A stretch of 64,000 bases of DNA from an uncultured Azospirillum sp. (GTDB lineage: Bacteria; Pseudomonadota; Alphaproteobacteria; RF32; CAG-239). Position 1 is the first letter of the stretch; every line of letters starts with the position of its first letter. The stretch lies in NCBI GenBank assembly GCA_947301965.1, contig CAMYUM010000003.1:30127-94126 (forward strand), in the 5' to 3' direction. The translations under genes were made by a program, and so were the position numbers. Positions 2,978-46,247 of this stretch are shown here, in pieces. Below the pieces are notes generated by a model. It worked only from the letters and a program-made list of their open reading frames with translations, searched no databases and was not told the origin of the DNA.

Positions 2978-3904
2978 TTATTTTTTACCGATTAGGGCGT
3001 GGCGCTCCCAAAAGATGCCGTCAGAATAGCCCTGAATTTGTTTGTTTTTTTGCGCCAACTCAAGCCGTCTTTCAGCCCAAATGCAATAATTTGGGTTTTG
3101 TTCTATGCCGACGTAACGACGTCCGAGTTTGCGTGCGGTTACGGAAGTTGTACCCGAGCCTAAAAACGGGTCAAAAACAATATCGTTTTTGTTGGAACTG
3201 GCCAAGATTAATTTAGCAATCAATTTTTCGGGCTTTTGGGTAGGATGAGCGGTGTTTTCGGGCATCGACCAATAAGGAATGGAAATATCATCCCAAAAAT
3301 TAGAAGGGCAGGTATTGCGAAAACGACCTTCCGAAGTCTGTTCCCAGTCTTTGGGTTTGCCGTCCTGTTTGTAGGGAGCCAAAACTTTGCGCCGGACTTT
3401 TACGGCATCAAGATTGAAAGTGTATTGTTTGTCCATGGTGGCAAACCAAATATCTTCCATGCCGTTTTTCCAATTTTGGGTGGCTCCGCGGCCTTTTTCA
3501 CGTTGCCAGGTAATACGGTTTTGAATATTGAAATAACGTGCCAAAACCGGACCGATAACCAGGCTTGATTTCCAATCACAACAAACATAAATGGAGGCAT
3601 CGGGCTTTAACAAAGGAAGAGCTTTTTCTATCCATTCAACAGTATATTTCTCGTATTCGTCATCGGCCGTTTGAGTAAATTTATTGCCGTGAAAATCTTT
3701 GCTAAGGTTATAAGGAGGGTCAACAATCAGCAGGTCTACAAAATGTCGGGGAAGTCTGGGCATGATTTTGAGCGAATCTCCGACGATGGTTTTGTTGATG
3801 ATTGCTGATAGGGTAGTTTTGCGGCTGACTTTAATACATCGTTTGAGATAAGCCCTGCCTTCAAGAAGTCCGATATCTATGGTTTTGTTTTTTTCTGATT
3901 TCAT
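2978..3904 (-). CDS. ccrM: beta-class N6-adenine DNA methyltransferase, CcrM/HinfI-like (orphan, no adjacent REase)
   Basis: motif IV DPPY (LLIVDPPYNL) precedes motif I FDPFLGSGTT; AHPTQKPEKL matches CcrM AHPTQKPEAL; ORF trimmed to ATG at 3904 (MKSEKNKTIDIGLLEGRAYLKR). Confidence 0.75.
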   Translation of the reverse strand: MKSEKNKTIDIGLLEGRAYLKRCIKVSRKTTLSAIINKTIVGDSLKIMPRLPRHFVDLLIVDPPYNLSKDFHGNKFTQTADDEYEKYTVEWIEKALPLLKPDASIYVCCDWKSSLVIGPVLARYFNIQNRITWQREKGRGATQNWKNGMEDIWFATMDKQYTFNLDAVKVRRKVLAPYKQDGKPKDWEQTSEGRFRNTCPSNFWDDISIPYWSMPENTAHPTQKPEKLIAKLILASSNKNDIVFDPFLGSGTTSVTARKLGRRYVGIEQNPNYCIWAERRLELAQKNKQIQGYSDGIFWERHALIGKK

Positions 3905-4055
3905 TTTTGCCTCATTGTTGAATTGATAGCAAATAAAAGCACAAAAACCAAGATGTTTTATAGTTTTTGTTGATATCTGTTCTGTAAATGTTATAGACAT
4001 GATTATAAAAACGATGTATGAAAAATGTGAAAGTGTAAGGCGTTAGGAAAACAAT

Positions 4056-7146: not shown

Positions 7147-7166
7147 GCTGGTCGAAGTGACTGGAC
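7147..7166. repeat. 19-20 bp direct repeat of the tRNA-Pro 3' end (TGGTCGAAGTGACTGGACT); att-like scar
   Basis: identical to 7341-7359 (the 3' acceptor/T-stem of the minus-strand tRNA-Pro). Confidence 0.7.
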
Positions 7167-7302
7167 TGTCCTCGACATTGCTTAAAGCAATGCTCGTTCC
7201 ACTGCGCTCGTCGGCTAAAGCCGACCGTGATACTTTCGTCTCACTCTCGCTTGTAGTCAAACAGCTTCCCGCTGGTTCGTGTCTTACCGCTTTGCGGTTA
7301 AC

Positions 7303-7337
7303 ATAAAAAAACCGCCATAAAGGCGGTATTTTTTTTA
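7303..7337. terminator. bidirectional rho-independent terminator (A-run, ACCGCC-ataaa-GGCGGT, T-run)
   Basis: stem 7311-7316/7322-7327 flanked by A8 and T10. Confidence 0.7.
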
Positions 7338-7340
7338 TGT

Positions 7341-7417
7341 TGGTCGAAGTGACTGGACTCGAACCAGCGACCTCTGCGTCCCGAACGCAGCGTTCTACCA
7401 GGCTGAACTACACTTCG
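7341..7417 (-). tRNA. tRNA-Pro (anticodon CGG)
   Basis: reverse complement gives CGAAGTG-TA-GTTCAGCCTGGTAGAAC...CTGCG-TTCGGGA-CGCAG...GGTTCGAGTCC...CACTTCGACCA; acceptor stem pairs, anticodon loop UUCGGGA, CCA encoded. Confidence 0.85.
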
Positions 7418-7525
7418 ATAGTGCCATTATGTTTAGCACAAAAAAAATAGATGACAACCTTTTTTTTATTGCAACGGCGTTTTTTTTAATTTACGCTGTG
7501 TTTGTATTTGTTAATGGAGGGAAAT

Positions 7526-8011
7526 ATGCGTAAAAAATTGGCATATTGGCTGGCAACAATCAGCGGCGTAGGGTATTGTCCGTTTGCATCGGGAACGGCA
7601 GGTTCGCTGGTAACAATTCCGTTGGCGTGGCTTTTGGCCTTTTATTATGGAGTTGTCGGTATTACCTTGGGCGCGGTGGTGGTATTTTTTGCCGGAACGG
7701 CAGCAACCAAAGAGGTGTTGAAATACACAAAGCATGATCCCTCAATTGTTGTTATTGATGAAATGGCCGGACAGTTGCTGAGTTTCGGGTTGGTAGCTAA
7801 CCAATTGGTTGAGCGAACCGATTTGGGCGCAATTTTGATGTATATTATAGGTTTTGGTTTGTTCCGGTTGTTTGATATTATTAAACCGCAACCGGCAAAA
7901 TGGGCAGACAGCCAGGTTTTGAATGCATGGGGTGTTATGCTTGATGATGTGTTTGCCGGAATTTATGCCGCAGTAATTTTGTGGCTGATTAATTTAATCT
8001 TTGTTCTCTAG
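7526..8011 (+). CDS. pgpA: phosphatidylglycerophosphatase A
   Basis: SGVGYCPFASGTAGSL ... VIDEMAGQ ... FRLFDIIKP motifs of PgpA; GGAGGG RBS 7516-7521; ATG 7526. Confidence 0.8.
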   Translation: MRKKLAYWLATISGVGYCPFASGTAGSLVTIPLAWLLAFYYGVVGITLGAVVVFFAGTAATKEVLKYTKHDPSIVVIDEMAGQLLSFGLVANQLVERTDLGAILMYIIGFGLFRLFDIIKPQPAKWADSQVLNAWGVMLDDVFAGIYAAVILWLINLIFVL

Positions 8012-8057
8012 CAGTTGAAATCTTACTTGCGTTGATTATATAGGCAACGGAGGTGAG

Positions 8058-8142
8058 AATGTTTTTCTTTAAGCATAGGCATATGGTAATGATGTCATTG
8101 TTGGCGTTGTTGGTGGCAATGACGTTGGTGTTGTTTAATTGA
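8058..8142 (+). CDS. mini-ORF, 27-aa single-TM peptide (MFFFKHRHMVMMSLLALLVAMTLVLFN)
   Basis: GGAGGTGAGA Shine-Dalgarno 6 nt upstream of ATG 8058; hydrophobic core; not in ORF track (<60 aa). Confidence 0.35.
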
Positions 8143-8150
8143 GGTTAGGT

Positions 8151-8219
8151 ATGAAAATCTGGCATTGGATTGTGGTCGCGGTTTTTATTTTTGCGGTGGT
8201 GATTACGTTGTTTTTTTAA
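8151..8219 (+). CDS. mini-ORF, 22-aa single-TM peptide (MKIWHWIVVAVFIFAVVITLFF)
   Basis: GAGGTTAGGT SD directly upstream of ATG 8151; 9 nt after previous mini-ORF stop. Confidence 0.35.
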   Translation: MKIWHWIVVAVFIFAVVITLFF

Positions 8220-8280
8220 GCGAGGTGTTTTTTTAGCTTGACACGTATGGATAAAAGGCGTATACACGCTTCATATTTAT

Positions 8281-8357
<77 letters not shown>

Positions 8358-8362
8358 ATAAA

Positions 8363-8396
8363 AATAAAAAACCTTCCTTTATGGAAGGTTTTTTTG
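8363..8396. terminator. bidirectional terminator (ACCTTCC-tttat-GGAAGGT + T7) between tRNA-fMet and the autotransporter
   Basis: perfect 7-bp stem, A-run upstream, T-run downstream. Confidence 0.7.
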
Positions 8397-8403
8397 TTTT
8401 GAA

Positions 8404-11400
8404 TTATTCAAATGCGTACCTCAGAGATAGCATTCCGGTGTGTTCTTGGTATCCGGAACGATAAGTTCCCATATATGATACGGCAGCAGAAATGTTTTCG
8501 GTCAGTGATTTTGCAAAGCTTAGGCTCGTTTCATAACCTAAACGACGCAATTTGTCGCCGTCGACAACATAACCGCTTCCATTGGACAGATATACATGAG
8601 TGTTGTTTTTGTCAGCCATAAAGTCATAGGTTAAACCGAGATAGGCTTCTGCCCGAATATCATATATTTCTCTGGCAAATCTTAAACTGATGACACCCCG
8701 CAAAATATCAGCATTGTCGGCAGATACTTTTTGAGCGGCGCTATCGGTATATCGGTCTCGTTTGATGTGATAGTAGCGGAAACCTGCTTCCGGTGTGAAA
8801 TATTCAAATTGATAACCGGCCATGCTTGCAACAGATGCAACCCATACGTCATATCTGGCGTTATAAGTATCATCAAGAGCATATTTCTTTTCTTTATAAT
8901 TCGATTGTCCGTAGGAAATAATTCCATTGATAAACTGTCGGCAAGGCTTGTATTCCCCATAAACAAAGCCGGTGACAGAATTTATGTCTATGTCTCGGGA
9001 CATAATATCAACGTCTGTTCTGTCAATTTGTAAACCGGCACCGAACTTGTAAGCGCGGTCTAATTCTTTTTCAAGACCAAATATAATGCCGCGGCTGTTG
9101 GAGTTTGAACCATCAATATTTTGGCGAGTACGCATCTTGGTATCGCTCAAATAAGGATTGCCCCAGGCGGTAACGTCGCTGAATTCGTCACTCGATAATA
9201 AACCGATTTGTTTGTTGCGGAGATATGAATCAACGGTCTTAAATAAAATGGAATTTTGTTCTGTTACGGTATTTTGGACAACCGCAGTTTCTGTCGGAGC
9301 AAGAGCCTTGAGGTTATGGACAAATCCGGCAGCATCATGTTGCGCCAAAGCGGCAAGTTTATCTGCAGCAATTGCACCGCTCGATCCTTCGGCAAAAGGA
9401 GCTTCATCTACCCATGCTCCGGCGGCATTTGCTACCCAAGATCTGGCTCCTTGCTCTTTAGCAACATCTGCAGCAGTTGATTTTTGAAGAATAGAGAAAA
9501 CACCAAACTTGCCTTTGGTCTTGATAAATTTGTACATATTGTTTTCGGCAACATCAACGCCTTCTTCGGTATGTGATACATCTTTATCAGCAAAATCACC
9601 GTTGTGGCTGCCGGCTTTAATTAAAGTTACTTCGCCATAATTGATGCCTTGAGCCAGAGTAGCTTTTAGTTTTGCTCCGCTGTTGATGGTCATGTCGTCA
9701 GTAATATTTAACAGGCCGTGCTGTCCATCTTCAAGACCATTAATTTTTAATGATAATGTGGATGAACTATCAAGTTTCATAGATTTGAGATTAACGGTGT
9801 TGGCGCCAATGTCTATCTTAGAGTTTTTGGCGTTTATTGTATCGGTATTATCCAAATAATTTGAACCGACTTTTAATGTAGAATTATTAACATTAATTTT
9901 ATTGCCGCTGATGGTGTTGGACAGTGTCCAGTTATTGTTGACGTTGATTACGCCGTTGTTATTTGTGCTTGAGATTGCATTTGTAAGAGCGGTGCCGGTT
10001 TTCAAATTTAAAGTGCCATTGTTTGTAATATCGCCGTTAACAATAGTGTTAACCAAGTTTATTGTTCCGTTGTTTACGACGGAATTGCCAATTGTAGAAT
10101 TCTTTGTGGTCAAATTACCGGTATTGGTAATGTTGGCGTTGGTAACAGAGCCGTTTAACTGATTTGTTCCGGAAGTGGTCATATTAAACGCGGTAGCGCC
10201 GGTAATTGTGCCGTTGATAATGCTGTCTTTAATGCCTACGGTTGCGCTGCCGTTAGTAACATTTGCTATGGTAGAAGCCCCGCTGACGGTTACGTTATCA
10301 AAGTTTAACGCAGTAGCACCTTCGCCAAGTTGGAAACCATGTCCGTTAAGGTTGAGAGTTTCTGCAGCACCGCCGGAGATACCTTTGATGTTTAATGTTC
10401 CTTTGGTGTCACCCAAATCGTCGCCCACATTATATGTCTTACCTTGTTGATTAGCCGTAAAGTTTTTGGTTGCATTGGTAGTGTCGTTGTTGACCAATTT
10501 CAGAGTATCACCAAGAGAGGTGTCGGTAGTCGTGCCACCATCACGTCTTGAAAAAGCAACCTCAATTGAGAGTTTGTCGTCGCTCAATCCTAATTTGCCA
10601 TAATCGGTGCTGGCGGTGGTGGTGTGTTCCTGATATACTTTGTTCCAAGCGGTATTTGCTTCGATAGTATCTGTTGAAGTGGTCGCTCCCGATGTTCCAA
10701 TAATGTATTCCGTTGAATTAAATGCTGCTTGTACGGCACTACTCAATGCCAGTTTGAGGGTGCTTGATGTCGCCGGATTTAAGACTTGTACGCTGAAATC
10801 ATCGGCGAGAGAAGTTGTTGACGGATCCAAGATATTAACGGAAGTCAGGGTGAGAGTTCCGGAAGAGGCATTGGTCAAATTAAACGTATCGACGGAAGAA
10901 CTTGATAGATTCATATCTATGGCCAAATTGCCGTTACCGTTAATAGCACCGATGTCATGAGATGTGATGGTTCCGTTTGAAACAGTGATTGTTCCACTAT
11001 TTGCGTTTAACGTTCCTGCAACTTCGGCTCCACTATTTAGTGTCAACGTACTATTAACATATGTTGTACCGGTTCCGGCAATAGTCTTTGCCAATACGCC
11101 GGATAAGTACAAATTACTGCTGTTGGTGATACTTGAATCGGCAATATTTGCCGCGGTTGTGGTTAAATTACCGGTATTGGTAATGTTGGCGTTGGTAACG
11201 GCTCCATTTAATTGGCTGGTTCCGGAAGTGGTCATATTAAACGCGGTATCGCCAGTGATTGTACCATTGAGAATACTGTTTGTAACACCGATTGTAGCAG
11301 AACCGTTAGTAACGGTAGCTATGGCAGAACTTGAATTGACGGTTACGTCATTAAAGTTTAATGCGGTAGCATCATCACCGACTTGAAAACCCTGATGTGA

Positions 11401-14400
11401 GGCAAGATTAAGTGTCTCAGCGTTGCCGCCAGATACACCGTTGATGTTAACAGTGCCGTTGGTTGCACCTAAATCATCACTGAGGTTATATGTCGCACCT
11501 TGTTGATTAGCAGTAAAGTTCTTGGTCGTATTAATTGTATCTTGGTTAACCAACTTTAAGGTATCACCCAAAGGACCATCGTCAACTCTGTCTCCTTGAA
11601 CGGTTGTTTCATGATCTTGTATATAACCAATGGAATCATTAGTAGTAGTTGTTGTTGTAAGACCTATAGTTCCGTAATGTTCTATGGTATCTTCTCTATG
11701 CCAACTAGAGAGTTGGTCGTTCCAATTTGTTGTTGCAGTTATTTGATCTGACCCTGTAACGGTTTGTGTAGTTTCAAATAACTTATGTATGTCGCTACCA
11801 CCTAGCTGTGATATAACCGCATCGGATAAAGCGAGCTGTAGGGCAGATCCGGAGGCATTATTTATTATTTGTACTTTATAATTGGCATCTACTCCGGTAA
11901 AGTCTCCGGTGAGGTTCAAATGTGATAGAGTTATGGTGCCGGCAGAATTGTTTGTGGCAGAAATGACATCAGCCTGTTTGCCTGAGGCGTCAAAATCTAT
12001 GGTATAATTTACATTGGCATTACTGTTAAGGTGATTTATTGCATATGTATCATATGAAGACGTGTTGCCGAGATTTATAGAACCGGCAGTAAAGTTAACG
12101 GTGTTGGCATTGGTAAATGTATCCGTGTTAAAAATTAATCCACCGTTACTATCGTTCATAGTTGCATTTGCCATGCCGACGGTTCCATTGATGGTATTAT
12201 TACCGCTTAATGTTAATCCGTAAGCGGCAGTACTTGCGGCAATATTACCATTGAGAATACTGTTTGTAACACCGATTGTAGCAGAACCGTTAGTAACGGT
12301 AGCTATGGCAGAACTTGAATTGACGGTTACGTCATTAAAGTTTAATGCGGTAGCATCATCACCGACTTGAAAACCCTGATGTGAGGCAAGATTAAGTGTC
12401 TCAGCGTTGCCGCCAGATACACCGTTGATGTTAACAGTGCCGTTGGTTGCACCTAAATCATCACTGAGGTTATATGTCGCACCTTGTTGATTAGCAGTAA
12501 AGTTCTTGGTCGTATTAATTGTATCTTGGTTAACCAACTTTAAGGTATCACCCATGTTCTCGTAGGAAGTATCACCGCCTTCTGTTCTGGTAACTGTAAT
12601 GCCAATAGAGTCATCTGTCGTGGTCTTTGTTTTCAGGCCTAGTTGTCCGTAGATTTCTTTATCGGAAATAACGGTTGTTTGATATATTTTGTCCCATGCT
12701 GTTGTGGTAGCAATTGCTTCGTCGGTTGTTGAACCTTCGATCGTTTCTAATAAATGTTCTGAGTCCAGGCCTGATGCAAGTTGCAATTTTAAAGTAGAAT
12801 CGGCATTTCCATTACTAATAATTTGTATTACGTCTTCAGTACTTAAATCTTCGTAATTGCCAATAATATTAATATTCCCAATGGTAATGGTTCCGTGAGA
12901 CTCTGCTGTTGTAGTAATCTTGTCTGCCGTTTTTTCGGTAGCATCAACGTCAATTTTATAGATTAAGCCATTTGAACCTAGCTCAACTGTGTTAATGGTG
13001 TTTGAATCAATATGATCATTAATTTGATTGATTTCTCCGCTATTGTTATCGGTTGTCAGCAAGGCAATTTGATTAAAATTTCCGTAGGTGATGTCGCCAT
13101 TTGTTTGAGTAATTTTACCTAAAATTAATTTAGCACCATTGTATAAATTTACGTTACTGTTAAGTATGTCGTTGTTAAATACATAAGTTCCGCCCTGAAT
13201 GCCGGTTTTGTTGTTAATGTTGATTGTACCTGAAGAATAAAGTCTGCCGCCAAATGAAATTTTTTGCCCCTCGGCAGCGTTTAGTGATATCGTACCGCCA
13301 TCATTGAATATATCACTATAATTTTCGCCGGCTTTGTTGTTATAAAAAACGATATCTCCATCATCACTTGTAGCATCTATAGATATTGTTCCTCGGTTGT
13401 ATATTGCTCCGCCTTTTCCCCCTGCAATATTGCCGAGAAAACTTCCACGGATGCTGCCATATGTGGCGTTACTACCTACATAGATGGCACCACCGGAGCC
13501 ACCGGCTTTGTTGTTAATAAAGTCTCCGATAATGTTATTTATTTTGCTGTTGGTGTTCGTATAGGTATATATTGCTCCGCCATCCTCACCGGCAGTGTTG
13601 GCAATAAAGTCACTGGTAATGGTACCAATAGTGGCACTGTTATGATAGATTGCTCCAGCTTTCCTGAGAGCACTATTACCAATAAAATCACCGGTGATAT
13701 AATTTCTATTTCCTTGTTTTGTATATATTGCACCACCACCATCAGTAGGTTTGGAGGGGGCATCAACTTGCCATAAACCTTCAGATCTGTTACCAATAAA
13801 ATTACCGCGTATTTCATTGATTGTCTGGTCCGTTCCAAGATTTAGCGCGCCGGCATTTTCCTTATATGCTACGTTGCCAATAAAATTGCCAATGACGGAA
13901 GTTATTTTAGTTTTACCACTAATTGCGACAGCTCCGCCTCCATATTTGTGTATGGTAGAATTGTTGATGAAATCACTTTGAATAGTGTCAGTATAGGTGT
14001 GTGCAGAAGTGCTTTTAAGAAATACTGCACCACCTTGACCTGCTTCTTCAATATTAAAAAATAATTTATTATTAACAGCAAGTGTTGCCTCTTCGTCTCC
14101 GCTTCCACTTTCATTTGCGTAACGTGTTTCTGTTTCGGTATAACCAGTGGGCAGAGTATATTGATATATATAGTCTTTGACTGGTGAATCGCCGATGACA
14201 TGTGGTATTTCGAACGAGATTGATCCGGTGGCTGTTGATGTTCCTTCATTCCAAGAAGGATCGGCAGTTCCTGATGTCCAAGATATATTATCAATATCTT
14301 TAAGATTGATGTTGTAATATTGTGTATTACCGCTTCCATCATTGACGGCAAAGTCGTAGCTTTCGGATGTTGCATTAGACCGTTCCCATGCGGTTTCTGC

Positions 14401-14514
14401 TGCCGCTGTTGTCGGTAAGAAAAAGACACCGCAAAGTAAACTGACTGTTGTAGTCAATCTGTGGATTCTTAAGTTTTTTATCGGTTTGTAAGTCAACATT
14501 AGTTTTTCCGTCAC
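8404..14514 (-). CDS. giant autotransporter (2036 aa) with polymorphic-membrane-protein (Pmp)-type GGAI/FxxN repeats, ~330-aa tandem passenger repeats and a C-terminal beta-barrel translocator
   Basis: N-terminal signal (LLCGVFFLPTTAAA); repeated GGAIY/GGAVF + FIGN/FINN motifs; C-terminal ~280 aa ending ...LSLRYAFE with aromatic terminus typical of autotransporter barrels. Confidence 0.8.
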   Translation of the reverse strand: MTEKLMLTYKPIKNLRIHRLTTTVSLLCGVFFLPTTAAAETAWERSNATSESYDFAVNDGSGNTQYYNINLKDIDNISWTSGTADPSWNEGTSTATGSISFEIPHVIGDSPVKDYIYQYTLPTGYTETETRYANESGSGDEEATLAVNNKLFFNIEEAGQGGAVFLKSTSAHTYTDTIQSDFINNSTIHKYGGGAVAISGKTKITSVIGNFIGNVAYKENAGALNLGTDQTINEIRGNFIGNRSEGLWQVDAPSKPTDGGGAIYTKQGNRNYITGDFIGNSALRKAGAIYHNSATIGTITSDFIANTAGEDGGAIYTYTNTNSKINNIIGDFINNKAGGSGGAIYVGSNATYGSIRGSFLGNIAGGKGGAIYNRGTISIDATSDDGDIVFYNNKAGENYSDIFNDGGTISLNAAEGQKISFGGRLYSSGTININNKTGIQGGTYVFNNDILNSNVNLYNGAKLILGKITQTNGDITYGNFNQIALLTTDNNSGEINQINDHIDSNTINTVELGSNGLIYKIDVDATEKTADKITTTAESHGTITIGNINIIGNYEDLSTEDVIQIISNGNADSTLKLQLASGLDSEHLLETIEGSTTDEAIATTTAWDKIYQTTVISDKEIYGQLGLKTKTTTDDSIGITVTRTEGGDTSYENMGDTLKLVNQDTINTTKNFTANQQGATYNLSDDLGATNGTVNINGVSGGNAETLNLASHQGFQVGDDATALNFNDVTVNSSSAIATVTNGSATIGVTNSILNGNIAASTAAYGLTLSGNNTINGTVGMANATMNDSNGGLIFNTDTFTNANTVNFTAGSINLGNTSSYDTYAINHLNSNANVNYTIDFDASGKQADVISATNNSAGTITLSHLNLTGDFTGVDANYKVQIINNASGSALQLALSDAVISQLGGSDIHKLFETTQTVTGSDQITATTNWNDQLSSWHREDTIEHYGTIGLTTTTTTNDSIGYIQDHETTVQGDRVDDGPLGDTLKLVNQDTINTTKNFTANQQGATYNLSDDLGATNGTVNINGVSGGNAETLNLASHQGFQVGDDATALNFNDVTVNSSSAIATVTNGSATIGVTNSILNGTITGDTAFNMTTSGTSQLNGAVTNANITNTGNLTTTAANIADSSITNSSNLYLSGVLAKTIAGTGTTYVNSTLTLNSGAEVAGTLNANSGTITVSNGTITSHDIGAINGNGNLAIDMNLSSSSVDTFNLTNASSGTLTLTSVNILDPSTTSLADDFSVQVLNPATSSTLKLALSSAVQAAFNSTEYIIGTSGATTSTDTIEANTAWNKVYQEHTTTASTDYGKLGLSDDKLSIEVAFSRRDGGTTTDTSLGDTLKLVNNDTTNATKNFTANQQGKTYNVGDDLGDTKGTLNIKGISGGAAETLNLNGHGFQLGEGATALNFDNVTVSGASTIANVTNGSATVGIKDSIINGTITGATAFNMTTSGTNQLNGSVTNANITNTGNLTTKNSTIGNSVVNNGTINLVNTIVNGDITNNGTLNLKTGTALTNAISSTNNNGVINVNNNWTLSNTISGNKINVNNSTLKVGSNYLDNTDTINAKNSKIDIGANTVNLKSMKLDSSSTLSLKINGLEDGQHGLLNITDDMTINSGAKLKATLAQGINYGEVTLIKAGSHNGDFADKDVSHTEEGVDVAENNMYKFIKTKGKFGVFSILQKSTAADVAKEQGARSWVANAAGAWVDEAPFAEGSSGAIAADKLAALAQHDAAGFVHNLKALAPTETAVVQNTVTEQNSILFKTVDSYLRNKQIGLLSSDEFSDVTAWGNPYLSDTKMRTRQNIDGSNSNSRGIIFGLEKELDRAYKFGAGLQIDRTDVDIMSRDIDINSVTGFVYGEYKPCRQFINGIISYGQSNYKEKKYALDDTYNARYDVWVASVASMAGYQFEYFTPEAGFRYYHIKRDRYTDSAAQKVSADNADILRGVISLRFAREIYDIRAEAYLGLTYDFMADKNNTHVYLSNGSGYVVDGDKLRRLGYETSLSFAKSLTENISAAVSYMGTYRSGYQEHTGMLSLRYAFE
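11264..11570. repeat. 307-bp segment identical to 12248-12554 (intragenic tandem repeat unit, period ~984 bp)
   Basis: read directly: identical string ccattgagaatactgtttgtaacaccgattg...ggtatcaccca at both positions. Confidence 0.85.
12248..12554. repeat. second copy of the identical 307-bp segment; a diverged third unit lies at ~10120-10520
   Basis: as above; encodes duplicated DTLKLVNQDTINTTKNFTANQQGATYNLSDD... block. Confidence 0.85.
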
Positions 14515-14604
14515 GTCAAATCTGTATAAGTGTGGTATTACAGACTTTCCAAGTATATTTTATAAAATTTAAAAAAGTTTTAAATTTACGAGTAAAAGGT
14601 ATTT

Positions 14605-16893
14605 TTATCGTCCGTTGTTTTGGTTTTTGCTTAGTGGCAAAATAGTCTTATTGTCTCTAAGCTGTTGCTCGTCAGGTATGCTGGCAATAAGATTATTGGT
14701 TTTATAAAGCCATTGCTTGAAAGCAGGTATGTTCTCTCGGGGCAAAACATATTGCTTACTTGCGCCAAAGTAAGATAAAATCAAAATTTTTTGGTCTTTT
14801 TGCTTTTCAAGTGTCTGCCAAAGCTGTGATTTTAGGCCGTGATCTGCTACGAAGAAGCTACCATCACCGCGTTTAAGTTTCCACTGGTATATAAATTGTG
14901 CCTTAATGGTGTCTGTCTGTTCAATTTGTCTTCCTTGAACACACTGTTTCTTGGGCCTTGATGGCTTGTCAGCTGTTGTTTTAGGAGCTTTTGTCTTACG
15001 AGGTATGCTCTCACCTTTTTGATAGACTGTAAAACCACCAATTTGATAAAGTTTTTGCTTGAAAGCGGGTATGTTTTCTTTAGGCAGAACAAAAGCGTAT
15101 TGAACCTGAACCAAAAGACCATTGTTTTCTTGTTTTTTGATGGTGTTCCAGAGTTGAGATTTTTGTTTGTAAGAGAGTTTTTTCCCATCGCTTGTGAACA
15201 AACGCCATCCGGCACAAAAGGAAGTTTGTGTAATATCAGTTTCAGTCCTCTGGCGCACATGGGGAGCAGGTTTTTTAGGGAATTTTGTTTTTGAGGCAAT
15301 GATGCCTTTTTCCGTTAAAAGCCATCGTTCAAGTGCAGGAATGTTTTCTTCGGGTAAAACATAAGTTCGGTTATTGCCACTAAAAGCATAAATGAAAAAT
15401 TTGTTACGATTTAAAGATTTAAATTCCTTAAAAAGTGCAGATTTTGCTTTTGTACCCTTAATGGATTGTCCGTCAAGCCCATTTAGGTGCCAGTAGCGGA
15501 ATTGTGTTGTTGAAAGGTCGGTTTCAAGCTTTTGGCGTAATGATAGGGTGTCGTTGAGGATTTTTGTCTCTGATGCAATGATGCCCTTTGCTGTAAGAAG
15601 CCATTGCTGGAAGGCGGGTATATTTTCTTGTGGCAAGACATATTGTTTGTAAGTTTTAGATTTGCCGTGTTTAACTGGGATGAAGAGGTTTTGTTGGTTT
15701 AATAGGCATTCTTCAAAAAGTAAGGATTTGGTTTTATGATTCCAGATAGGGTCATTATTTTTATCTCTTACAAACCAAGATCTGCAAAAGTTGTTCTTAG
15801 TTAAATCAGTTTTAAGCAATTGTCTTAAGGGTTCCAGGGGTTTCTGAGCAATTAACCCTTTTTGTTTGATAAGCCATTGCTGAAAAGCGGGTATATTTTC
15901 TTGAGGTAAAACAATAACAGGATGTGCTGAAGAAACACAGACAAATAGATTTGGATTTTTGGATTTAACTTCTTCAAAGAGTGCGATTTTAGTTTCGTAG
16001 TTTAGGACTTTGCCTTTTTCAGACATTATCAGCCAAGAGGTAGAAAATTGTGATTTGGTGATATCGGTATTAAGTTTTGCTCTAACGGATTTTAGAGGCT
16101 CTTGAGCTATAATATGTTTTTTTTGCAAAAGCCAATCCTTAAAGAAATGAATGTTCTCCTGAGGTAAAATAAAAGATGTTTTTCCATGTGACGGAACCAT
16201 GATGAATAGGTCTTTGTGTTTTGAAGATTTAAACTCGTTCCAAAGAGAAGTTCTGATTGGTCCTGGCACAGATTTGCCATTTTCGTTAGTTAGAATCCAA
16301 TGAGTATAAAACTGCAGATTGGTCAAATCAGTTTCAAGCACTTTTCGTTGAGATTTTCTTGTTTTTGAAGCTGTAATGCCTTTTTCTTCAATAAGCCATT
16401 GTTGAAATGCAGAGATGTTTTCCTGTGGTAAGGCGAGGGCGGAAAATCCGGTAGTTGAAGCGGTGACGAAAAGTTCTTGATGTGAATTTCGAAAAGTGTT
16501 CCATAGATTGATTCGATCTTGAATGGTGGGGGCTTTGCCGTTTTTGTCTCTTAAATGCCAAGAATGCACAAAATTGCTTATTAAAAGATCCGTATCGAGC
16601 TTGGGTCTTTGTGACTTGGCCAAAATAAGGCCTTTTTCTGCCCAAAGGCGTTTTTTAAAAGCAGGAATGTTTTCTTCGGGTAAAACGTGAATGAAGTGAT
16701 ATTTTGCTGAAAGCTGAATAAAGAGTTCGGGGGCAAATAACACAAGTTCATCCCAAATCTTTAGTTTTTGTTTTCGGTCAATAGCTTTGCCGTTTTGGTC
16801 CTTCAGACCGCATGCTTTGAAGAACTTGTTTCGGGTTAAATCGGTATCAAGTTTGGTGCGTTCATTTTGAGTAAAAGGAGATGTCTCTTCCAT
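14605..16893 (-). CDS. tandem-repeat protein (762 aa; ~8 units of ~88 aa with VLPQENIPAFQQWL...KGIIA and KLxTDLTxxxF..W motifs); function unknown
   Basis: self-similarity obvious in the translation; no signal peptide; Lys-rich. Confidence 0.75.
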   Translation of the reverse strand: MEETSPFTQNERTKLDTDLTRNKFFKACGLKDQNGKAIDRKQKLKIWDELVLFAPELFIQLSAKYHFIHVLPEENIPAFKKRLWAEKGLILAKSQRPKLDTDLLISNFVHSWHLRDKNGKAPTIQDRINLWNTFRNSHQELFVTASTTGFSALALPQENISAFQQWLIEEKGITASKTRKSQRKVLETDLTNLQFYTHWILTNENGKSVPGPIRTSLWNEFKSSKHKDLFIMVPSHGKTSFILPQENIHFFKDWLLQKKHIIAQEPLKSVRAKLNTDITKSQFSTSWLIMSEKGKVLNYETKIALFEEVKSKNPNLFVCVSSAHPVIVLPQENIPAFQQWLIKQKGLIAQKPLEPLRQLLKTDLTKNNFCRSWFVRDKNNDPIWNHKTKSLLFEECLLNQQNLFIPVKHGKSKTYKQYVLPQENIPAFQQWLLTAKGIIASETKILNDTLSLRQKLETDLSTTQFRYWHLNGLDGQSIKGTKAKSALFKEFKSLNRNKFFIYAFSGNNRTYVLPEENIPALERWLLTEKGIIASKTKFPKKPAPHVRQRTETDITQTSFCAGWRLFTSDGKKLSYKQKSQLWNTIKKQENNGLLVQVQYAFVLPKENIPAFKQKLYQIGGFTVYQKGESIPRKTKAPKTTADKPSRPKKQCVQGRQIEQTDTIKAQFIYQWKLKRGDGSFFVADHGLKSQLWQTLEKQKDQKILILSYFGASKQYVLPRENIPAFKQWLYKTNNLIASIPDEQQLRDNKTILPLSKNQNNGR

Positions 16894-29500: not shown

Positions 29501-32413
29501 ATGAGACTAAAACTTACAGGTTGTTTTTTAGCTGCAACATTGGCGGTTAGTTATAATGCTTTCGCTCAATACGGAGGGATTGCAAGTAACCTGTATGAGA
29601 ACGCAAGACGCGGCAATTACGGCGCGATTCAACGTGTTATCGACAGCGGATACTCAATTGATACCACAGATGTCAACGGCAATACGGCTTTGTGCATGGC
29701 TTTGATGCACAGAGATTCTTATGCGTACAGTTTTTTGAGAAAATTCGGGGCTGATTCGCAACATGTTTGCACGAGGTATTTGCAAGGTAATACATATGCG
29801 AGCAGGTATTCGGGACCGGGTTTTGAGTGGAAACCGGCTTACACCGTGGGTGCAGTAGCATTGTTGGGTGGAGCTGGTGTTGCTGCGGCACTTGCCGGCG
29901 GCGGAGGAGGAGGTTCTCATCATTCTTCCGGCGGCGGTTCGGGCGGCGGCGGTGATGACCCCGGCGGCGGCGGTTCCGGTGGCGGTGATGACCCCGGAGG
30001 CGATGAACCAGGTGGCGGTGATGATCCGAGCGGCGGCGGTTCCGGCGGTGAGAGCGGAATTATTTCAGATAAAGAAATTGTTACCCCGTTGAACTCAAGC
30101 TTTTTTGAAACCGACGAATACAAAAAAGGCAATTTTTTAAGCAAAATTAATGCCTCAAAAGCTTATGCGCGTTTTTACGGTTTGGATGAAGACGGGAATA
30201 TGGCAACCCAACTTAATCGTGTGATGGTCGGAGTGATTGATACCGGTATTTATGCGGATAATGCCGATTTTGCAACCACAATTACGAGCGGCTTTAACTC
30301 TGACTATGGTCCGTGTTTGAACGGTGATAATAAGAACTGCTGGAAATATTCGGGCGGAAAAGTTTATTTTTCGGAAGACAGCAACCAGTATTATACAATG
30401 TCGCAGGCCGATTATAATACATGGGTAGCGGAATATAGCAGCAATTATAATTGGGATAATAATAAAGATAATTTCTTCCCGGAAAGAGGAACCAGCAATA
30501 TGCATGGAACTCACGTTGCCGGTATTATCGGAGCCGATAAAAACGGTTCGGGTATGCACGGAGTTGCTTTTTCAAACGCGGTACTCTTGGGCGGAAGATG
30601 GGATTTTATGTCACGTCCGGGAGATGTTATATCTAAAATGGTTGATGAAGGCGCCCAAGTCATTAATATGAGTTTCGGGCTTGATGCCAGAGTATATCCG
30701 GCCACAGATTTGAATGATGATTATTACAGTCAATACAGAACCAGCACAAATAATTATATTGTATCGGGGGTTTTAAAAGCAGCAAATAATAATGTGGTTA
30801 TGGTTATGTCGGCAGGAAACGAATCGCAGACACAACCGGGGCTGTATAACGGTATGCCCAATCTAACGGCGTTAAACGGGGCTTTGAACAATTTGTTTGT
30901 TACGGTAGTGGCGACGGGATCAGACGGATCAATTGCAAATTATTCCAATGCGTGCGGTGTTGCCAAAAACTACTGTATTGCCGCACCGGGTGGAGATTCT
31001 TCGAGCAAAATTTGGTCAACCGGTACTTATGATGTGACAATGTACGGTTCGTACGGAACATCAATGGCGGCACCGGTGGTTTCAGGCAGTATTGCATTGC
31101 TGATGGGGGCATATCCTTATTTGACACCGCAACAGATTGTGTCGTTAATTTTTGAAAGTGCCAATAAGAGCGGTATATATGCTAATAAGGACCTTTATGG
31201 TAATGGTATGTTGGATTTAGCTGCGGCAACGAATCCACAGGGATATTTGGGTACGATTTCATCAACAGATGCAGATTCAAGTGTGGTTAACATAAATTCA
31301 AGCAGAGTTGTTGTTCCGTCAGTATTTAAGGAAGCCCTGCAGAATAATATGCCAAAAACTATGGCGGTGTTTGATAAATATAAACGCCCGTTTAATATCA
31401 AATTTGATTCAATGGTTCAAACAACCCACAGCGGGCATAAGAACTTTAAGAACGATTTGTATAATTTCTCTCGTCATCAGCCGAAAAAGACGGTCAGCGA
31501 TGACAGTTTTGCTTTTGCTTATGCGCCTTCTTCGTATAGCAATAATGACGGAGGCATAGGTATTGCAGATGTTTCGTACAAAGATGATAATGCCGAGACA
31601 TCATTCTTCTTTGCCGAAAACAGTTTATACAGCTCCGGCGATTATAATGATAAAGCTATGTATAATCCTTATTTGGCAATGAACGATGCTTATGGTGTTG
31701 CTCATAAAATGTATTGGGATGATAATCTCAGCTTTAAGATGAGCTTTATGACCGGTGAAAACGGGTTGTATGACGGCGATCGTAATTATCATGATTATAA
31801 CTTTGATAATCGCTCCTATGCGTTTAATACAGAGGTTTCGTACCAAGTTACACCTAAGTTTAATGTAACGGCAATGACCGGTATGTTGGCTGAAGATGAT
31901 GCTTTGCTTGGTATGAACGGACGCGGTGCGTTATCAATCGGTGACAGTAATACTTATTATGCCGGGCTGATGTTGGAATGGCAGCCGTTTGAAAATTGGA
32001 GTTTCGGCGGAGCTTATTATCATGGTTGGACCGATGCATCAAAAGTTTATGGCAGTATGATTAGCACATCGCAACTGATGAGCGACAGTTTTGCTTTGGA
32101 CGGACACTATAATATTAATAAGACCGATGTTGTCGGTTTGCAAATATCTTCTCCGTTGAGGATTTATAACGGTCATGCGGATTTTGATATTGCAACCGGG
32201 CGTGATAATTATTCTAATGAAGTTTATCGTGAAAAAATCAGGGCTAACCTGAAACCGTCTTCAAGAGAATATAAGTTTGCGCTGTATCATAACCGTGAAA
32301 TAACCGACAGCGTGTTGTTCAAGAGTGAATTTGCAGTTCGCTTGCACCCAGAACATCAAAAAGATGCCGAAACCGATTATCGAGCAATGTTCGGTTTGTC
32401 GTGGGCATTCTGA
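29501..32413 (+). CDS. subtilisin-like (S8) serine protease autotransporter with N-terminal ANK-like repeat and Gly/Asp/Pro-rich linker
   Basis: signal peptide; catalytic triad motifs VGVIDTG (D), HGTHVAGII (H), GTSMAAPVVSG (S); C-terminal ~300-aa beta-barrel ending FGLSWAF. Confidence 0.85.
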   Translation: MRLKLTGCFLAATLAVSYNAFAQYGGIASNLYENARRGNYGAIQRVIDSGYSIDTTDVNGNTALCMALMHRDSYAYSFLRKFGADSQHVCTRYLQGNTYASRYSGPGFEWKPAYTVGAVALLGGAGVAAALAGGGGGGSHHSSGGGSGGGGDDPGGGGSGGGDDPGGDEPGGGDDPSGGGSGGESGIISDKEIVTPLNSSFFETDEYKKGNFLSKINASKAYARFYGLDEDGNMATQLNRVMVGVIDTGIYADNADFATTITSGFNSDYGPCLNGDNKNCWKYSGGKVYFSEDSNQYYTMSQADYNTWVAEYSSNYNWDNNKDNFFPERGTSNMHGTHVAGIIGADKNGSGMHGVAFSNAVLLGGRWDFMSRPGDVISKMVDEGAQVINMSFGLDARVYPATDLNDDYYSQYRTSTNNYIVSGVLKAANNNVVMVMSAGNESQTQPGLYNGMPNLTALNGALNNLFVTVVATGSDGSIANYSNACGVAKNYCIAAPGGDSSSKIWSTGTYDVTMYGSYGTSMAAPVVSGSIALLMGAYPYLTPQQIVSLIFESANKSGIYANKDLYGNGMLDLAAATNPQGYLGTISSTDADSSVVNINSSRVVVPSVFKEALQNNMPKTMAVFDKYKRPFNIKFDSMVQTTHSGHKNFKNDLYNFSRHQPKKTVSDDSFAFAYAPSSYSNNDGGIGIADVSYKDDNAETSFFFAENSLYSSGDYNDKAMYNPYLAMNDAYGVAHKMYWDDNLSFKMSFMTGENGLYDGDRNYHDYNFDNRSYAFNTEVSYQVTPKFNVTAMTGMLAEDDALLGMNGRGALSIGDSNTYYAGLMLEWQPFENWSFGGAYYHGWTDASKVYGSMISTSQLMSDSFALDGHYNINKTDVVGLQISSPLRIYNGHADFDIATGRDNYSNEVYREKIRANLKPSSREYKFALYHNREITDSVLFKSEFAVRLHPEHQKDAETDYRAMFGLSWAF
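29880..30060 (+). repeat. simple-sequence region (GGCGGCGGTGATGACCCCGG-type units) encoding GGGSGGGGDDPGGGG linker
   Basis: three tandem copies of an imperfect ~30-nt unit (ggcggcggtgatgaccccgg-like, read directly from sequence). Confidence 0.7.
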
Positions 32414-41076: not shown

Positions 41077-41197
41077 CATATAACAAGCTCATCTAGAGCT
41101 AAAATTGCGAAAAGGGAAAAATTCATGTACTTCTTTGTACACTGGGATTTTTCCCTTTCTTATTTTGACTCTATCTGAACTGTTTTCTGTGTTTTTT
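41077..41197. repeat. intergenic repeat element copy 1 (~121 bp) with nested hairpins and T-run end
   Basis: ATAACAAGCTCATCTAGAGCTAAAAT...GGGAAAAATTCATGTACTTCTTTGTACACTGGGATTTTTCCC...; 9-bp inverted repeat GGGAAAAAT/ATTTTTCCC enclosing TGTAC..GTACA. Confidence 0.8.
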
Positions 41198-41202
41198 AGG
41201 GT

Positions 41203-41325
41203 ATATATAACAAGCTCATCTAGAGCTAAAATTGTTCAATAAGGAAAAATTCATGTACTTCTTTGTACACTGGAATTTTTCCCTTTCTTATTTTAACTTT
41301 ATCTGAACTGTTCTCTACGTTTTTT
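41203..41325. repeat. intergenic repeat element copy 2 (tandem to copy 1, ~90% identical)
   Basis: direct read; period ~126 bp. Confidence 0.8.
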
Positions 41326-46033: not shown

Positions 46034-46100
46034 TGCGTATAACAGCTCATCTAGAGCTAAAATCGCAAAAAGGAAAAATTCATGTACTTCTTTGTACACT
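46034..46100. repeat. intergenic repeat element copy 3 (5' ~68 bp of the 41.1-kb element)
   Basis: GTGCGTATAACAGCTCATCTAGAGCTAAAATCGCAAAAAGGAAAAATTCATGTACTTCTTTGTACACTG matches copies 1/2 then diverges. Confidence 0.75.
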
Positions 46101-46247
46101 GCGGTGCTTTCGCTCTTGTTTCTTGTTATTTACCTCATTCTCCGAGTTTTTGACAAATGGATAACTAGCACATAAATTTCATTTTTTTATATTTGTTACC
46201 ATTTGTTAGGAATATTTATGTATTATCATATCCGAGGAGATTTTGAT

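Follow-up and report, generated by a model that had tools for sequence, protein, structure and literature searches.

How do two segments of one gene come to be identical at every nucleotide when the sequence on either side of them has diverged? The question is raised by an autotransporter gene of 2036 codons in a 64,000-nucleotide (nt) stretch of DNA, here called the window (positions 30,127 to 94,126 of contig CAMYUM010000003.1, assembly GCA_947301965.1, deposited as an uncultured Azospirillum sp.). The host is an uncultured rumen alphaproteobacterium and a close relative of the metagenome-assembled genome (MAG) "uncultured Rhodospirillales bacterium RUG10691". The encoded protein, about 2030 amino acids (aa) long, is built as a classical (type Va) autotransporter: a Pmp-type head, three large modules and a C-terminal PF03797 barrel. 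The reading we favor, with a probability of roughly 0.7, is that it is a classical autotransporter adhesin with old stalk modules, in which gene conversion is limited to the core of each module and recombination runs from core to core.

The repeat at the center of the question is perfect over 309 nt (11262-11570 = 12246-12554). An earlier reading of this DNA, made without database searches (the sequence-only reading), was right that the identity is perfect but gave its length as 307 bp. The copies are offset by 984 nt, or 328 codons, and are in frame; the pair is the longest repeat within the 64-kb window, and an exact match of that length is far above chance. Outside the 309 nt, identity at the 984-nt offset drops at once to background on both flanks, and therefore there is no 984-bp tandem repeat at the DNA level. 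Tandem Repeats Finder reported no array in the gene because DNA-level similarity is limited to the core. The ~984-bp (328-aa) tandem repeat of the sequence-only reading is thus a feature of the protein, where self-BLASTP finds three head-to-tail units (~aa 487-820, 821-1175 and 1176-1530; E 1e-77 to 1e-94), here modules A, B and C. A unit alignment divides each module (~330-350 aa) into three: first a variable, fast-evolving "up" part (~165 aa), next the conserved core of 103 aa, and last a "down" part. The period is not constant even so, as the spacing from B to C is 1053 nt. The third, diverged unit that had been placed at ~10120-10520 is present as module C, its core at 10207-10512 and the similarity between units B and C reaching down to 10104.

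Codon-level comparison of the modules separates an old array from a young core. The up parts of A and B are identical at 35.5% of residues, 48% of nucleotides and 36% of third positions, and 34 of their 59 identical residues are encoded by different codons. The first 44 aa of their down parts are similarly distant (~30% aa and 23% third-position identity). The core that lies between is identical at 100% of residues and 309/309 nt, with different codons at 0 of 102 identical residues. The A/B core and the core of C share 71% of residues and 72% of nucleotides, and 33 of their 72 identical residues are encoded by different codons; B-down and C-down share 77% aa and 79.5% nt over their first 44 aa. 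If the core were as old as its flanks, the probability of zero synonymous differences in 102 codons would be ~1e-38, a figure that is our own rough binomial estimate from the codon-comparison counts (34/59 vs 0/102). Saturated A/B flanks around an identical core point to an old array and to recent conversion, not recent duplication, as the source of the identity. Orthologous parts in related species are 66-86% identical vs ~25-40% for paralogous parts, so the three-module array predates these lineages. The array is old by both measures: its paralogous flanks are saturated, and A-up, B-up, B-down, C-up and C-down all have orthologues in related species. Core identity and saturated flanks are together best explained by an exchange that was recent, non-reciprocal and confined to the core, and the gene conversion inside diverged units that the sequence-only reading had called recent is supported (309/309 nt in the core vs 30-35% aa and 23-36% third positions in the flanks).

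The same locus in related genomes carries different numbers of modules. The nearest homologue, P0002 (1354 aa), is encoded at a syntenic locus (L001) that has PgpA, LPG_synthase_TM and ArsP_2 neighbors in common with the window. A scan of genome contigs found only two further orthologues: L002 ("MAG: Alphaproteobacteria bacterium Tb.RUG.69", a MEGAHIT k141 contig) and L003 (RUG10691, 80-85% identical to the window at the nucleotide level over ~11 kb of flanking synteny). Both of these contigs stop inside the adhesin gene. Architectures were assigned by segment-by-segment BLASTP against the window parts. The window gene reads A-up/core/A-down/B-up/core/B-down/C-up/core/C-down; L002 reads, from its cut end, A-up/core/B-down/C-up/core/C-down; L003, also cut, reads B-up/core/C-down; and P0002 reads A-up/core/C-down. 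The A-down/B-up segment is in neither L002 nor P0002, and the end of B-up is kept in L003. B-up is 69% identical to its counterpart in L003, and B-down is 84% identical to that in L002. Four related genomes thus show four architectures, and all rearrangement junctions in the relatives fall in the core. The layout of L002 is the exact product predicted from recombination between the identical cores of the window gene, an in-frame loss of 984 nt (-328 aa).

The comparison can be made within one species, that of both L001 and L002, which differ at 1/324 nt in A-up and at 13/2037 nt in the C-terminal part (99.4-99.7% identical outside the junction). L001 has one unit and L002, its contig cut in the gene, at least two. 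Across 412 nt the two L002 cores share 91% identity, the longest uninterrupted match being 57 nt, and in the single unit of L001 the informative sites switch from L002-unit-1-like to unit-2-like at nt 2010-2028, inside the core. This single unit may reflect a genuine deletion, or else collapse during short-k-mer assembly. The two-unit form of L002 lies on one k141 contig, and its repeats match exactly over no more than 57 nt, so collapse hardly explains its absent A-down/B-up. As far as assembled sequences can tell, these comparisons support the view that module number varies between strains and species. The repeat-number variation between strains that the sequence-only reading had predicted is in line with them (four architectures in four relatives; one unit vs at least two in L001 and L002), with the caveat that all are metagenome assemblies.

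An exact look-up did not find the window allele on record. Further searches for it returned a 90% cluster with one member, the protein being a database singleton, and a metagenome scan yielded nothing beyond L004, which is identical to L002, and L005, a fragment of 2.3 kb. The fragment (JAEEGL012909734.1, 2263 bp) is 99.8% identical to window positions 7149-9411 and belongs to the same species as the window. It comes from the metagenome assembly that gave Tb.RUG.69, so the window species and the L002 species share that sample. Separately, a second clade of homologues (P0015, P0038, P0120 and relatives) has 4, 3 and 2 units, with cores that are 95-99% identical at shifted positions, which suggests that close relatives in that clade, too, differ in module number.

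Cores also resemble each other more within genomes than between them. Core nucleotide identity is 100% within the window (A/B) and 91% within L002 (its first and second cores), and 67-77% between genomes; the L002 cores are 67-73% identical to those of the window. On this pattern, core homogenization would have happened independently in two lineages, the window's and that of L002, while the flanks follow orthology. Most homologues have a core identity of just 25-70% inside one protein. Exact unit identity was checked as a family-wide trait in the P0003 gene, where the two closest units are 79% identical at the nucleotide level and the longest exact run is 29 nt.

The likely mechanism behind these patterns has two parts. 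In a recent gene conversion, one of the cores of modules A and B would have overwritten the other, leaving perfect 309-bp direct repeats 984 bp apart. Conversion would be kept to the core because that is the sole place where paralogous modules retain enough DNA similarity for pairing. The cores would then double as crossover sites, at which recombination could drop or add whole modules in frame: in the window gene, a core-to-core event would delete 11571..12245 plus one core (984 nt) and leave A-up/core/B-down. In an autotransporter the C-terminal end of the passenger sits beside the barrel, and for this reason the modules are read as a stalk and the head as distal. Judging from this order of domains, the modules most likely form a stalk for an adhesive Pmp-type head, which they would hold off the outer membrane. 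Gain or loss of modules would alter the length and reach of the adhesin and its exposed epitopes.

Several points weigh against this account. The stalk and adhesin functions are read from the architecture only, and Foldseek gives no significant structural match for the module model. All sequences are metagenome assemblies, and the "100%" core identity is perhaps an upper bound. The exact 100% and the unit counts in the window and L001 rest on single assemblies, with the window protein a singleton, and the counts in L002 and L003, which are cut in the gene, are partial. The 309-bp exact repeat is longer than common short-read assembler k-mers, so that the assembler either resolved the repeat or merged near-identical copies. 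Finally, the differences seen lie between strains or species, and none was recorded inside one population.

Two of the rival explanations concern the origin of the identity and are decided at silent sites. Unit B could be a young copy of A, duplicated whole and since diverged, which would account for the head-to-tail units and the in-frame 984-nt period. Outside the core, however, A and B are like unrelated sequence at silent sites (third-position identity 23-36%), and B-up and B-down have their own orthologues (69% in L003 and 84% in L002), so unit B predates these lineages. A recent duplication of the whole unit is contradicted by the saturated silent sites and by orthology by position, and we regard it as very improbable. 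The alternative that purifying selection on an essential binding site maintains the identity can point to the core, which the family conserves better than any other part of the module, but selection at the protein level is unable to hold synonymous sites. The A/B and C cores use different codons at 33 of 72 shared residues and the A and B cores at 0 of 102, silent-site counts that contradict selection and leave it with next to no credibility.

The other two rivals concern the assembly and the biology of the variation. Near-identical cores could have been merged and the consensus traversed twice, or the number and order of units could reflect how short reads were resolved or collapsed. Every locus comes from MAG or metagenome contigs, the two orthologous contigs L002 and L003 end within the gene (which bears out the assembly-collapse hazard flagged by the sequence-only reading), and the closest relative of the window gene in the JAEEGL metagenome is a 2.3-kb fragment. 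The 309 bp exceed typical k-mers (the contig names carry MEGAHIT k141 and k127), rickettsial rompA repeats were closed only with nanopore reads (PMC6908463), and exact identity is not family-wide (79% nt between the P0003 units). The window is the expanded form, whereas artefacts usually collapse repeats, and the 675 nt between its cores are unique, so a core must flank them on both sides in some real molecule. Both L002 units lie on a single k141 contig with no exact match longer than 57 nt between them, and the window cores would be far more alike than the flanks even if a few single-nucleotide polymorphisms had been erased. An artefact is an unlikely alternative. Somewhat less likely again is programmed high-frequency variation, that is, a contingency or antigenic-variation locus that switches module number or core sequence within a population. 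Perfect 309-bp direct repeats are an efficient substrate for recombination, the relatives display every core-to-core deletion product, and in the second clade, cores that are 95-99% identical occur in proteins of 2, 3 and 4 units. Against this, positions 8001-15300 hold no homopolymer of at least 8 (A/T) or at least 7 (G/C) and no 2-7-nt unit repeated at least five times; the homopolymer or short repeat tract that marks a simple-sequence contingency locus, in the promoter or 5' coding region, is absent there. Beyond 8404-14514, blastn and tblastn searches of the 64-kb window matched the gene nowhere, and the window holds no second or silent core like the silent donors of cassette-type antigenic variation (pilE/pilS, msp2, vlsE). 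A search for inverted repeats found none, the ten flanking open reading frames (ORFs) scanned include no dedicated recombinase, and the observed differences are between strains and species, not inside one sample. To speak of contingency-locus behaviour, as the sequence-only reading did, was an over-reach.

Core-limited conversion with core-to-core recombination thus remains the preferred reading. A bolder form of it would make the core a built-in recombination cassette, in which repeated conversion maintains the likeness of the cores and so lets otherwise unrelated stalk modules be deleted, duplicated and rejoined in frame, giving standing length and epitope heterogeneity of a major adhesin in rumen populations. 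We consider this doubtful. If it were true, the cassette would amount to a recombination-driven contingency system on an undescribed module of ~330 aa, common (by source names) to giant autotransporters of Alphaproteobacteria and Gastranaerophilaceae.

The module itself belongs to a large family. A hidden Markov model of the core finds 1-5 copies per protein in 67 of the 122 proteins examined, and invariant and nearly invariant columns mark the core as the best-conserved part of the module across the family. A profile search returned, among 1.84 billion, 645 cluster representatives at E <= 1e-3 (231 at E <= 1e-30); in this wider family a single protein can show as many as 17 matched stretches, and some proteins reach ~7000 aa. 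Carriers with a name are MAGs of Alphaproteobacteria and Candidatus Gastranaerophilaceae. An AlphaFold2 (AF2) model of module B, made from a module alignment of 26 sequences (A1), is all-beta and has a predicted local distance difference test score (pLDDT) of 90.3 and a predicted template modelling score (pTM) of 0.76. Strands in the up part of the model are unusually long (12-19 residues) and those in the core and down part short; judging from its long strands, the up part may be unlike a plain beta-helix. Foldseek of this model against the PDB gave no significant match, and the top non-significant matches were right-handed beta-helices, including the passengers of Ag43, Hap and Hbp (4kh3, 7koh, 3syj, 1wxr). 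When the PDB was searched by sequence, neither the protein nor the module profile gave a usable match; over the sequence and fold searches, nothing was significant (E >= 0.03, TM <= 0.28). A Pfam scan of the 26 module sequences gave no consistent family. For annotation, a widespread passenger module without a Pfam or PDB match is now defined and has a confident AF2 model.

The rest of the protein is that of an ordinary autotransporter (Table 1). The ORF opens with GTG; the database copy (P0001, 2031 aa) starts at an ATG five codons downstream, and this ATG, at 14499, is likely the true start. Read by eye from the translation, the N-terminus has a basic n-region, a hydrophobic core and an AAA cleavage motif, with putative cleavage between AAA and E. 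A Pfam scan of protein fragments matched five stretches of the first 495 aa to PF02415 (Chlam_PMP; E 6.6e-13), and there GGA[ILV] occurs 6 times (positions 161-368) and FxxN 9 times (positions 55-390). The whole-protein Pfam scan overlooked the barrel; the fragment-wise scan recovered PF03797 in the final 352 aa (a fragment starting at aa 1685), where the match spans profile positions 1-254 of 255 and scores 109.9 bits (cut-off 26; E 2.2e-31). An NCBIfam scan of the protein gave no match. The C-terminus (last codons, 8404-8412) is ...RYAFE, with F penultimate; a terminal aromatic residue is frequent in such barrels but does not define them. Close relatives end in ...RYEFE or ...RYEFD and distant homologues in F, so that the clade of the window protein has an additional acidic residue past the terminal aromatic of the barrel.

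Table 1. Positions of the adhesin gene, the parts of its product and adjacent signals in the window.
Feature	Position	Strand	Remarks
Autotransporter adhesin coding sequence	8404..14514	minus	ORF of 2036 codons from GTG
Putative Sec signal peptide, MLTYKPIKNLRIHRLTTTVSLLCGVFFLPTTAAA followed by ETAW	14398..14499	minus	read from translation
Pmp-type repeat head, ~aa 140-400	13315..14097	minus	PF02415 and motif counts
Module A variable up part, aa 487-654	12553..13056	minus	orthologous to P0002 and L002 up parts, 66-68% aa
Module A core, exact-repeat copy 1, aa 655-757 (GDTLKLVNQ...SILNG)	12246..12554	minus	
A-down and B-up, aa 758-982	11571..12245	minus	unique stretch between identical cores
Module B core, exact-repeat copy 2, aa 983-1085	11262..11570	minus	
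B-down and C-up, aa 1086-1334	10513..11261	minus	
Module C core, aa 1335-1436	10207..10512	minus	72% nt / 71% aa identical to A and B cores
Module C down part, aa 1437-1530	9925..10206	minus	
Membrane-proximal passenger end and linker, aa 1531-1782	9169..9924	minus	82-86% conserved in relatives
Autotransporter beta-barrel PF03797, aa 1783-2014 matched	8473..9168	minus	
Bidirectional terminator-like hairpin	8366..8394	.	10 nt past stop, between adhesin gene and convergent pgpA
Weak sigma-70-like promoter match, TTTAAA-16-TAAAAT	14557..14584	minus	consensus match only, in 90-nt upstream spacer

Three neighboring features of the window were recorded in passing. An ORF of 762 aa directly upstream of the adhesin gene (14605-16893, minus strand) contains ~8 diverged repeats of ~90 aa with the motif ...VLPQENIPAFQQWL..KGIIA; it matches no Pfam family convincingly, lacks an obvious signal peptide and is not syntenic in L001. 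An N6/N4 DNA methylase (PF01555, E 1.7e-45) is encoded at 2978-4000 on the minus strand, near the adhesin locus. Further away lies an intergenic repeat family of 88 nt with an internal hairpin-like palindrome, whose three copies (41110-41197, 41238-41325 and 46067-46154) are 61-100% alike.

The phenomenon is known already, and this case is a clean fresh example of it that comes with an unannotated module family. It is a case, built from sequence data, of core-limited concerted evolution in a surface adhesin, with the predicted recombination products present in relatives. In rumen and gut microbiology, it suggests that strains of an uncultured alphaproteobacterial lineage vary in a major surface structure; in genomics, it is a warning not to trust the number of units that short-read MAGs show for such genes. 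General knowledge of how repeat-bearing adhesins vary is unchanged by it.

Among known systems, the head and layout of the protein recall chlamydial Pmps, classical autotransporters in their own right, in which a signal sequence precedes a passenger containing GGA(I/L/V) and FxxN motifs and a barrel forms the C-terminus; in Pmp21 these motifs mediate adhesion (PMC2997323). The combination of Pmp repeats and barrel, which the sequence-only reading had called unusual, is therefore not so (PMC2997323), and dozens of homologues combine PF02415 with PF03797. The window protein, with these two domains and a putative signal peptide, resembles Pmp21 of C. pneumoniae and PmpD of C. trachomatis in its autotransporter layout. 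Unlike them, it comes from an alphaproteobacterial rumen MAG rather than from Chlamydiaceae, and its Pmp-type region makes up ~260 aa of ~2030; the bulk of the passenger consists of three modules of another, unannotated family, and an adhesive role here is suggested by analogy. Like Ag43, Hap and Hbp, the protein appears to have an all-beta passenger (as predicted for module B) ahead of PF03797. Those known passengers are beta-helical, whereas the window module has no significant sequence or fold match.

The closest alphaproteobacterial precedent is the set of rickettsial genes rompA, sca1 and sca2, whose tandem repeats vary within and between species, break short-read assemblies and have needed nanopore reads for closure (PMC6908463). 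Rickettsia rOmpA (Sca0) and Sca1/Sca2 are, like the window protein, alphaproteobacterial autotransporters with passenger tandem repeats of varying number and gaps in short-read assemblies. The repeats themselves are different: rOmpA units are 216-225 bp and alike over their full length, whereas the window units are 984-1053 bp and alike only in the 309-bp core. Homogenization in the window gene is thus patchy, and recombination would fuse non-identical flanks into chimeric modules.

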